DNA from: Escherichia coli
GTDB lineage: Bacteria > Pseudomonadota > Gammaproteobacteria > Enterobacterales > Enterobacteriaceae
Assembly: GCF_003019035.1 (NCBI RefSeq)
Contig: NZ_CP027447.1
Strand: one strand, 5' to 3'
Length of the DNA stretch: 64,000 nucleotides
Numbering within the stretch: the stretch's first letter is position 1; each line of letters starts with the position of its first letter. The position numbers were made by a program. Shown piece by piece: positions 34,512 to 37,500 of the stretch.

Positions 34512-37500
34512 TAATTTCTTGCGTTATTTTCGGCACCTTTTATGTAGCGAAGGTGCCGGAATATATTCTCTTTTGTTACTTATTTCTATACCGTGCACAA
34601 TATTTTTATCCCTCATATTTATAGGGTAAATTACCTGTAAAGTAGTGTCTAATTACCCGCCTCGCAAACTCCAGTTTTCAAATATCTATTTCAGGTCAAA
34701 AGATTGAATTATTCACTGGAGACGATTCGTAAATTCGCTGGATTTTTGACTAAAGTTTCTTTAGGATTTGTCTCATCGTATGATTAATTACACCAATCGT
34801 TCAACGTCTTGCTGATAAGTGATGGCGATTATATGAGGTTAGCAATGCCTTCTGGAAATCAGGAACCCCGCCGCGATCCTGAATTAAAACGTAAAGCCTG
34901 GCTGGCGGTTTTTCTTGGTTCTGCACTTTTCTGGGTGGTTGTCGCACTGCTGATTTGGAAAGTGTGGGGATAACTATGGTCGGTCAGGAGCAACTGGAGT
35001 CGTCACCATTATGTCAGCATAGTGACAATGAACCAGAAGCAAAACGGGAATGTTCCGTCGTTATTCCAGACGACTGGCAACTAACATCGCAGCAACAAGC
35101 CTTTATAGAACTGTTTGCTGAAGATGATCAGCCGAAACAATAATTATCATCATTCTTATTACCCATTTTTAATGAATCACAGGGCTTTTAATACACCGCA
35201 GCAATAACAGGTTGAGTTATCTCAACACAAAGTAATAACCGTTAAGGGTGTAGCCTATGATCAACACAAATATGAAATATTGGTCCTGGATGGGCGCATT
35301 TTCTCTGTCGATGCTCTTCTGGGCCGAACTCCTCTGGATCATTACTCACTGATCCCTGACCCCGCTGTTTGCTTTGTCTCAAGGTTTCTCCTCTTTTATC
35401 AATTTGGGTTGTTATCAAATCGTTACGCGATGTTTGTGTTATCTTTAATATTCACCCTGAAGAGAATCAGGGCTTCGCAACCCTGTCATTAAGGAGGAGC
35501 TATGTCGTCAACCCTACGAGAAGCCAGTAAGGACACGTTGCAGGCCAAAGATAAAACTTACCACTACTACAGCTTGCCGCTTGCTGCCAAATCACTGGGC
35601 GATATCACCCGTCTGCCCAAGTCACTCAAAGTTTTGCTCGAAAACCTGCTGCGCTGGCAGGATGGTAACTCGGTTACCGAAGAGGATATCTACGCGCTGG
35701 CGGGATGGCTGAAAAATGCCCATGCTGACCGTGAAATTGCCTACCGCCCGGCAAGGGTGCTGATGCAGGACTTTACCGGCGTACCTGCCGTTGTTGATCT
35801 GGCGGCAATGCGCGAAGCGGTTAAACGCCTCGGCGGCGATACTGCAAAGGTTAACCCGCTCTCACCGGTCGACCTGGTCATTGACCACTCGGTGACCGTC
35901 GATCGTTTTGGTGATGATGAGGCATTTGAAGAAAACGTGCGCCTGGAAATGGAGCGCAACCACGAACGTTATGTGTTCCTGAAATGGGGAAAGCAGGCGT
36001 TCAGTCGTTTTAGCGTCGTGCCGCCAGGCACAGGCATTTGCCATCAGGTTAACCTCGAATATCTCGGCAAAGCAGTGTGGAGCGAATTGCAGGACGGTGA
36101 ATGGATTGCTTATCCGGATACACTCGTTGGTACTGACTCGCACACCACTATGATCAACGGCCTTGGCGTGCTGGGGTGGGGCGTTGGTGGGATCGAAGCC
36201 GAAGCCGCAATGTTAGGCCAGCCGGTTTCCATGCTTATCCCGGACGTAGTGGGCTTTAAACTCACCGGAAAATTACGTGAAGGTATTACCGCCACAGACC
36301 TGGTTCTCACCGTTACCCAAATGCTGCGCAAACATGGCGTGGTGGGGAAATTCGTCGAATTTTATGGTGATGGGCTGGATTCACTACCGCTGGCGGATCG
36401 CGCCACCATTGCCAATATGTCGCCAGAATATGGTGCCACCTGTGGCTTCTTCCCTATCGATGCTGTCACCCTCGATTACATGCGTTTAAGCGGGCGCAGC
36501 GAAGATCAGGTCGAGTTGGTCGAAAAATATGCCAAAGCGCAGGGCATGTGGCGTAACCCGGGCGATGAACCAATTTTTACCAGTACGTTAGAACTGGATA
36601 TGAATGACGTTGAAGCGAGCCTGGCAGGGCCTAAACGCCCACAGGATCGCGTTGCACTGCCCGATGTACCAAAAGCATTTGCCGCCAGTAACGAACTGGA
36701 AGTGAATGCCACGCATAAAGATCGCCAGCCGGTCGATTATGTTATGAACGGACATCAGTATCAGTTACCTGATGGCGCGGTGGTCATTGCTGCGATAACC
36801 TCGTGCACCAACACCTCTAACCCAAGTGTGCTGATGGCCGCAGGCTTGCTGGCGAAAAAAGCTGTAACTCTGGGCCTCAAGCGGCAACCGTGGGTCAAAG
36901 CGTCGCTGGCACCAGGCTCGAAAGTTGTTTCTGACTATCTGGCAAAAGCGAAATTGACACCGTATCTCGACGAACTGGGGTTTAACCTTGTGGGATACGG
37001 TTGTACCACCTGTATTGGTAACTCTGGGCCGCTGCCCGATCCTATCGAAACGGCAATCAAAAAAGGCGATTTAACCGTCGGTGCAGTGCTGTCCGGCAAC
37101 CGTAACTTTGAAGGCCGTATCCATCCGCTGGTTAAAACCAACTGGCTGGCCTCGCCGCCGCTGGTGGTTGCCTATGCGCTGGCGGGAAATATGAATATTA
37201 ACCTCGCATCTGAGCCTATCGGCCATGATCGCAAAGGCGATCCGGTATATCTGAAAGATATCTGGCCATCGGCACAAGAAATTGCCCGTGCGGTAGAACA
37301 AGTCTCCACAGAAATGTTCCGTAAAGAGTACGCAGAAGTTTTTGAAGGCACAGCAGAGTGGAAGGAAATTAACGTCGCACGATCCGATACCTACGGTTGG
37401 CAGGAGGATTCAACCTATATTCGCTTATCGCCTTTCTTTGATGAAATGCAGGCAACACCAGCACCTGTGGAAGATATTCACGGTGCGCGGATCCTCGCAA

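Follow-up and report, generated by a model that had tools for sequence, protein, structure and literature searches.

The small open reading frame between yciX and acnA in an Escherichia coli genome is ymiC, coding for a conserved small membrane protein, and has lost its terminator hairpin

The small proteins MgrB, MgtS and PmrR act by binding larger membrane proteins. YmiC is comparable to these proteins, all being shorter than 50 amino acids, single-pass, induced at low Mg2+ concentrations and regulated by PhoP, but it has no sequence similarity to them, and for YmiC the binding of a larger membrane protein is a proposed model. A second point of comparison is offered by the attenuators trpL and mgtL, which, like ymiC, are small open reading frames (ORFs) upstream of a metabolic gene; a terminator is found close behind ymiC in most relatives. 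In addition, ymiC is Trp-rich and has a PhoP-linked context in common with mgtL. YmiC departs from these attenuators in that its peptide sequence is preserved in the form of a transmembrane helix, in that the protein is stable and found in the membrane, in that alternative hairpins are not conserved, and in that 21% of the E. coli genomes do without the terminator. YmiC was first reported by VanOrsdel et al. 2018 (PMC6001520), who detected the chromosomal SPA-tagged protein in E. coli K-12; its ORF was noted there as an unexplained positive in tetracycline-inhibited ribosome profiling. In a study on low Mg2+ in which MgrB, MgtS and PmrR are grouped with YmiC, ribosome profiling revealed 17 small proteins with induction by Mg2+ starvation, ymiC being one of them (PMC11429745). 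The gene is the last one of ymiA-yciX-ymiC and its induction depends on PhoQP; a reporter of the region upstream of ymiA-yciX-ymiC displayed PhoQ-dependent activity, whereas a reporter of the region just upstream of ymiC displayed negligible activity (PMC11429745). A GFP-YmiC fusion was found at the cell periphery or membrane, the tag having been put on the N-terminus on the basis of a published topology prediction, and neither deletion nor over-expression of ymiC had an effect under the conditions tested (PMC11429745).

The DNA analysed is a stretch of 64,000 nucleotides of E. coli contig NZ_CP027447.1 (the window). A 31-codon frame in this window, downstream of yciX (Table 1), is almost certainly the known gene ymiC and a genuinely translated coding sequence. 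It starts with the ATG at position 35257 and stops with the TGA at positions 35350-35352, and translation from the window yields a product of 31 amino acids, MINTNMKYWSWMGAFSLSMLFWAELLWIITH, so that frame and peptide are exactly those of the original prediction. The peptide equals the YmiC sequence given in VanOrsdel et al. 2018 (PMC6001520) and is identical in all 31 residues to the founding member of K-12 MG1655 (b4741; 1335572-1335667). The position between yciX and acnA, the start and the stop are all shared with K-12, leader and ORF are nearly identical in the alignment, and the genes differ by a single synonymous change (GCA versus GCG at A14). Similarly, full-length matches were obtained with the NCBIfam equivalog model NF041484 (66.3 bits, with a cut-off of 42) and with Pfam PF23694 (87.5 bits, with a cut-off of 27). 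Membership of the YmiC family follows from these scores, the identity, the same-strand position between yciX and acnA, the coding constraint and the single transmembrane helix. A megablast search with positions 34780-35560 covered 5426 complete E. coli genomes, 5421 of which contained this region, and among the matches listed each carries a CDS ymiC with the product name small membrane protein YmiC. One of the matches, strain SCU-172, has 100% identity along the query, and its RefSeq ymiC CDS falls exactly on positions 35257-35352. The frame had been taken as unannotated, which is wrong, as RefSeq places ymiC at identical coordinates and K-12 carries it as b4741. The surmise that it could be a recently described E. 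coli small protein was right, this being the YmiC of VanOrsdel et al. 2018 (PMC6001520). As ymiC is already named, annotated and experimentally validated, the outcome is, for gene finding, a confirmation rather than a new gene; nevertheless, a reading of the raw sequence alone had correctly picked a true small-protein gene. With 35 ORFs of at least 20 amino acids overlapping the surrounding 1.7 kb, the size of the ymiC ORF alone is not beyond chance; it is lifted above chance because of its conservation and its matches to curated family models, which contradict a chance ORF. The preferred explanation as a whole, ymiC as a translated operon gene for a membrane protein, is given a probability of roughly 85%, the helix-packing mechanism proposed below being less likely.

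Table 1. Features of the ymiC region, with positions in the window
Feature	Position	Strand	Evidence and remarks
ymiA, operon gene 1, 46-aa putative membrane protein	34833..34973	+	RefSeq; NCBIfam NF000536, 96.8 bits; Pfam PF22868, 125.9 bits
yciX, operon gene 2, 55 aa, poorly conserved	34976..35143	+	RefSeq
Rfam RF02079 STnc180 (ymiC leader, ORF and terminator remnant)	35184..35396	+	182.7 bits
Stem-loop between yciX and ymiC, TTGAG-TTATC-CTCAA plus flanks	35211..35226	+	Rfam structure line; compensatory changes
Shine-Dalgarno-like TAAGGGTG	35243..35250	+	6-8 nt before the ymiC ATG
ymiC CDS, small membrane protein YmiC	35257..35352	+	31 codons plus TGA; RefSeq CDS, family models, K-12 identity
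YmiC conserved core K7-T30, transmembrane helix	35275..35346	+	Invariant columns, hydropathy, AlphaFold2
5' arm GACCCCGCTG left as an orphan from the intrinsic terminator of ymiC	35358..35367	+	K-12 alignment; 14-nt deletion junction 35367/35368
TGTTTGTGTTATCTTTA, proposed PhoP box in the proximal promoter of acnA	35431..35447	+	Motif in PMC10294627; within the most conserved intergenic block
acnA, aconitate hydratase A, downstream neighbour	35502..38177	+	ORF scan; RefSeq

The gene order in the window is cysB, ymiA, yciX, ymiC and acnA, and the RefSeq order agrees with the predicted location of the frame behind the ymiA-yciX pair. The amino-acid identity of yciX across genera is 31-71%. The plausible ribosome-binding site that had been expected before the ATG corresponds with a Shine-Dalgarno-like sequence, and a GGTG(T) core recurs at this place in most of 40 aligned loci. 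The stem-loop between yciX and ymiC is kept in structure rather than in sequence, with compensatory changes in two of its three predicted pairs, and looks terminator-like in Enterobacter. A sigma-70 scan found no promoter on the plus strand near ymiC, neither in the window nor in K-12, in agreement with the negligible activity reported for the region just upstream of ymiC (PMC11429745). The original prediction situated the frame in the acnA promoter region, which is loosely put, as the frame is part of the ymiA-yciX-ymiC operon and precedes the conserved block of the proximal acnA promoter. This block, including TGTTTGTGTTATCTTTA, a motif reported to bind PhoP-P in Salmonella (PMC10294627), is intact in the window and invariant in the intergenic alignment. 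A scan for PhoP boxes with three mismatches gave 181 matches, modestly more than the 146 expected, with none of the shuffles reaching 181; weak matches upstream of ymiA carry no weight, because there are too many matches overall.

Conservation of the frame was examined at two levels. Only ten YmiC matches came out of a HMMER scan covering 1.84 billion representative proteins, all with the motif KYWSW; the four distant ones (Kosakonia oryzendophytica, K. cowanii, Enterobacter and Yokenella) were all located in topA-cysB-ymiA-yciX-ymiC-acnA neighbourhoods. For a cross-genus set, one genome per species was searched with a degenerate DNA pattern representing the conserved core, and 47 ymiC loci were retrieved. 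All were from Enterobacteriaceae, namely from Escherichia, Citrobacter, Enterobacter, Lelliottia, Leclercia, Kosakonia, Phytobacter, Cedecea, Siccibacter, Pluralibacter, Yokenella, Silvania, Huaxiibacter, Dryocola and Pseudenterobacter, the one exception being a Terrisporobacter assembly, where the matching contig most likely represents contamination (454 bp, 1.3x coverage, ymiC identical to that of E. coli). The pattern gave no locus from Salmonella or Klebsiella in this one-genome-per-species set, and a guessed Salmonella-like YmiC peptide had no match in the protein collection; the blank is not read as absence, because the pattern was strict and the Rfam consensus of this region encodes an intact homologue. 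In every locus with enough flanking sequence, ymiA and yciX were found upstream and acnA downstream, in the order cysB-ymiA-yciX-ymiC-acnA. The distance from K7 to the stop is exactly 25 codons in all loci, with TAA, TGA and TAG all used at that position, even though the search pattern did not extend to the last six codons and the stop. Length and sequence differ in the N-terminal tail, but the frame is always kept.

Synonymous and nonsynonymous changes in the frame, the comparison by which the original prediction was to be judged, revealed purifying selection. For the Escherichia-Citrobacter set, dN/dS over all 31 codons was 0.17 in frame, versus 0.76 and 1.48 in the other frames. The whole-core value of the cross-genus set was 0.16, which is biased by the search pattern, and values of only 0.48 and 0.64 were found for the pattern-free codons and the last six codons, respectively. 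At pattern-free sites, the first, second and third codon positions had entropies of 1.26, 0.73 and 1.46, respectively. Moreover, RNAalifold found no conserved structure across the ymiC ORF in 40 loci. The fixed frame, the dN/dS ratios and the lack of structure over the ORF therefore show selection on the YmiC peptide, and not only on the RNA or on the act of translation.

As for the protein itself, AlphaFold2 (29-sequence alignment) predicted one helix comprising residues 3-30 with a mean pLDDT of 86, and the hydropathy maximum in a 19-residue window covers residues 12-30. Together with the location of GFP-YmiC at the membrane (PMC11429745), this supports the earlier view of a single-pass small membrane protein. 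Residues K7, Y8, W9, S10, W11, F15, S18, L20, W22 and L25 are invariant and position 24 is always E or Q; this invariance is partly enforced by the search pattern, which required conserved residues, yet it holds in the HMMER-derived homologues too. On a helical wheel, W11, F15, S18, W22 and L25 fall inside an 80-degree arc, and W9, G13, L20, E/Q24 and W27 form a second stripe, which amounts to conservation over about two thirds of the circumference of the helix. At positions 12, 16, 19, 23, 26 and 30 different hydrophobic residues are found, as expected of a side facing lipid. Because there are two conserved stripes and the remaining positions vary, we infer that the helix may be buried on two sides against other helices, belonging to a partner protein or to an oligomer. 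A profile search of the PDB with YmiC gave no matching chain, so that YmiC was not recovered as a subunit of any solved complex.

A mechanism may be proposed from these data. YmiC is made at low Mg2+ and consists, in the membrane, of a short variable N-terminal tail followed by one transmembrane helix, with the N-terminus probably facing the cytoplasm, in view of K7 preceding the helix and the published topology prediction. The helix may then pack in a sequence-specific manner on at least one larger inner-membrane protein and modulate it during Mg2+ limitation. This partner-binding mechanism, drawn by analogy with MgrB, MgtS and PmrR, is tentative and has somewhat less than an even chance. The conserved faces of the helix offer concrete residues to mutate.

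The region following ymiC differs between the window and K-12. The window is without 14 nucleotides, CGGCGGGGTTGTCA, that represent the 3' arm of the ymiC terminator hairpin in K-12, and the 5' arm is left as an orphan. The local hairpin energy is -17.8 kcal/mol in K-12 versus -3.6 kcal/mol in the window, and a terminator scan found no site on the plus strand after ymiC in the window, whereas the same scan found a site in K-12. Of the other loci, 45 had sufficient sequence downstream; in 43 of these, and in K-12, a G+C-rich hairpin plus U tract occurs within a few bases of the ymiC stop, the two exceptions being Citrobacter loci with an insertion there; the U tract of K-12, UUGUCAUUUG, is weaker than that of the outgroups, UUUUCUUUU. 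The hairpin starts about 1-10 nt from the stop in nearly all loci and roughly 12-24 nt from it in Kosakonia and Siccibacter. Because the Escherichia outgroups keep the hairpin, the deletion is derived.

Several other roles may be considered for ymiC. The whole region may be the non-coding small RNA STnc180 with an incidental ORF, given that Rfam RF02079 is matched over its entire length (positions 1-208 of 208 in the model; gathering score 50) and that the STnc180 candidate came from Hfq co-immunoprecipitation sequencing in Salmonella. However, the paper naming STnc180 saw only signals of 500-2000 nt on agarose gels and called these likely processed mRNA species, and an intact YmiC homologue can be read in the consensus of the model itself. 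Codon-periodic variation, a fixed stop position, the lack of conserved structure over the ORF in the 40 loci examined with RNAalifold, and the detection of the protein (PMC6001520, PMC11429745) make this reading very unlikely. Indeed, although the window exceeds the covariance-model threshold, it does not behave as a structured non-coding RNA, and the 3' terminator helix of the model is broken in the window by non-standard pairs. What is filed as a non-coding small RNA corresponds, at the same locus, with a small mRNA with a conserved ORF, so that the STnc180 family is best seen as the ymiC mRNA, consisting of leader, ORF and terminator, which is a useful correction for pipelines that call this locus a non-coding small RNA; the mRNA may have an extra base-pairing role besides coding. 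Alternatively, YmiC could be translated and inserted into the membrane without a specific function, for instance as an operon passenger kept as a generic hydrophobic helix. The lack of phenotype upon deletion or over-expression (PMC11429745) is consistent with this, as are the dN/dS values of only 0.48 and 0.64 mentioned above and the occurrence of common E. coli alleles that alter conserved residues (S10F on 485 contigs; K7N, Y8N and W9L, also at seemingly invariant positions, are rarer), the loss of the Shine-Dalgarno region in E. whittamii and a deletion of four residues in an E. marmotae variant. Against it, invariance from Escherichia to Cedecea and Siccibacter extends to ten positions, among which the polar S10 and S18, and E/Q24 is kept in the middle of the helix; these residues speak against a generic hydrophobic anchor, because such an anchor would not need them. 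As length and stop position are also fixed across genera, and synteny and co-regulation with ymiA are conserved, a passenger without function is quite unlikely. A type I toxin-like or membrane-damaging peptide, as might be suspected from a small, hydrophobic and Trp-rich protein resembling some membrane toxins, is extremely improbable, given that over-expression of YmiC had a negligible effect on growth, unlike that of DinQ in the same study (PMC11429745), that no PADLOC defence model was matched and that no conserved feature was seen on the opposite strand.

The position of ymiC also allows a role in cis, as an upstream ORF (uORF) or leader whose translation, ending just before a terminator, would set the read-through into acnA, with the peptide as a by-product. 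Indeed, ymiC is directly upstream of acnA in every locus, and in K-12 and nearly all loci the hairpin starts so close to the stop, within about 1-10 nt, that its 5' arm would be covered by a ribosome terminating there. A distal acnA promoter, reportedly described by Cunningham and colleagues in 1997, is said to start upstream of acnA at a distance of about 407 bp, so that ymiC would be on that transcript. Similarly, ymiC-acnA is among the candidate uORF pairs of Adams et al., for which the criterion was an RNA 3' end less than 200 nt downstream. However, the 3' end given in their table, at K-12 position 1335835 and not Rho-dependent, is situated 168 nt after the stop of ymiC, at 4 nt into acnA, and thus not at the ymiC terminator. 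Purifying selection acts on the amino acids (dN/dS of 0.17), YmiC accumulates and goes to the membrane (PMC6001520, PMC11429745), the 40 loci show no conserved alternative structure of the RNA over the ORF, and the hairpin is farther from the stop in Kosakonia and Siccibacter. In addition, the window keeps an intact ORF without the terminator, meaning that the ORF has been retained without the supposed gate. A purely cis-acting uORF as the main function is hence unlikely, but a cis effect could exist alongside the role of the YmiC protein. A classic leader-peptide attenuator was rejected, the terminator being deleted in the window and no alternative pairing being conserved across 40 loci.

Besides this coding of a membrane protein, which is the preferred reading, the loss of the terminator may have consequences for acnA. 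In the deletion allele, read-through into acnA is plausible. The further proposal that the 14-nt deletion lets PhoQP-driven ymiA-yciX-ymiC transcription, along with ribosomes, run on into acnA, and in that way couples aconitase A to Mg2+ starvation in this lineage, is possible, albeit against the odds. If true, it would represent a natural rewiring of a central-metabolism gene by terminator loss, with ymiC becoming the upstream cistron of acnA. The deletion allele is, in any case, a natural experiment on the coupling of ymiC and acnA expression. Initiation signals at the ymiC start in ribosome profiling (PMC6001520, PMC11429745) and chromosomal epitope tagging, with detection of SPA-tagged YmiC (PMC6001520), both proposed as checks of the frame, were already available from the literature. 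Among 5420 complete E. coli genomes, 1142 (about 21%) carry the 100-nt deletion allele and 4278 the 114-nt K-12-type allele. The carriers of the deletion allele include UM146 and SE15 and several isolates that we take to be ST131; UM146, SE15 and ST131 presumably belong to phylogroup B2.

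The ymiC mRNA is the Rfam family STnc180 (RF02079), which has been filed as a non-coding sRNA. The consensus of this family encodes an intact homologue of YmiC, a small membrane protein of 31 amino acids (b4741 in K-12). Common variants of this protein in E. coli, represented by the alleles P0003 and P0004 among others, were S10F (485 contigs) and M19I (433 contigs), while K7N, Y8N, W9L, and E24Q/G/D were less frequent; in one E. marmotae variant, four helix residues are missing.

Coordinates of features in the ymiA-yciX-ymiC-acnA region
Feature	Window position	Other coordinates
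yciX	34976-35143	
AATAATTATCATCATTCTT, at the yciX stop	~35139-35157	
STnc180 (ymiC mRNA)	35184-35396	
Conserved block with stem-loop 5' of ymiC	35186-35226	locus alignment A3, columns 42-103
Absent SD-like stretch, Escherichia whittamii		L060, 500-525
Terminator deletion after ymiC	35358-35368	K-12 locus L061, 873-894
Block ATCAATTTGGGTTGTTATCAAAnCGTTACG..ATGTTTGTGTTATCTTTAAT	35400-35449	
Stem-loop CAGGGCTTCGCAACCCTG	35468-35485	
Equivalent of K-12 RNA 3' end	35506	

In the window, the intrinsic terminator of ymiC has lost its 3' arm through a deletion of 14 nt, an allele carried by 1142 of the 5420 complete E. coli genomes; the terminator hairpin is retained in all outgroups (Escherichia). 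This deletion may allow transcription to read through from ymiC into acnA. Two Citrobacter loci (L050, C. sedlakii; L059, Citrobacter sp.) contained additional sequence between the ymiC stop codon and acnA, by which the usual terminator position is displaced or replaced; the insert of L059 is palindromic and resembles a REP element.

Upstream of ymiC, a conserved block reads TTTGTACTCTTTAATAAATACACAnCAGCAATA in most genera, whereas Escherichia retains only TTTTAATACACCGCAGCAATAA. It is followed by a stem-loop with compensatory changes, which in Enterobacter carries a U tail and was scored as a terminator after yciX. Candidate roles are the 5' end or promoter of a ymiC transcript, or an internal attenuator. 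In Escherichia whittamii, approximately 16 nt before the ymiC start codon are absent, including the SD-like AAGGGTGT. The ymiC ORF is intact despite this loss, although its translation in this species may be weak or lost because the SD-like region is missing.

Closer to acnA, the block ATCAATTTGGGTTGTTATCAAAnCGTTACG..ATGTTTGTGTTATCTTTAAT displayed a higher cross-genus conservation than ymiC itself; the PhoP box that has been proposed for the acnA promoter is located inside this block. The stem-loop CAGGGCTTCGCAACCCTG lies immediately 5' of the acnA Shine-Dalgarno sequence and is preserved in other genera, with altered loop and stem bases; an RNA 3' end has been mapped in K-12 about 20 nt downstream of it. 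At the yciX stop, 14 of the 19 positions of AATAATTATCATCATTCTT agreed with the Fur-box consensus, as counted manually without a tool. A strong cluster of Fur sites (17.6 bits) has been predicted at -371 from acnA (PMC2189734), to which this putative site corresponds.

The conservation of yciX is far below that of both neighbours, ymiA and ymiC, its amino acid identity across the homologous loci being 31-71% versus 64-98% for ymiA. No match of yciX to any family model was found, and the gene was not called in Yokenella-type loci. Finally, ymiA, yciX, and ymiC were present on a contig of 454 bp (1.3x coverage) in the assembly of Terrisporobacter mayombei. Its ymiC and ymiA fragment are identical to those of E. 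coli, and the contig is almost certainly a contamination of that assembly.
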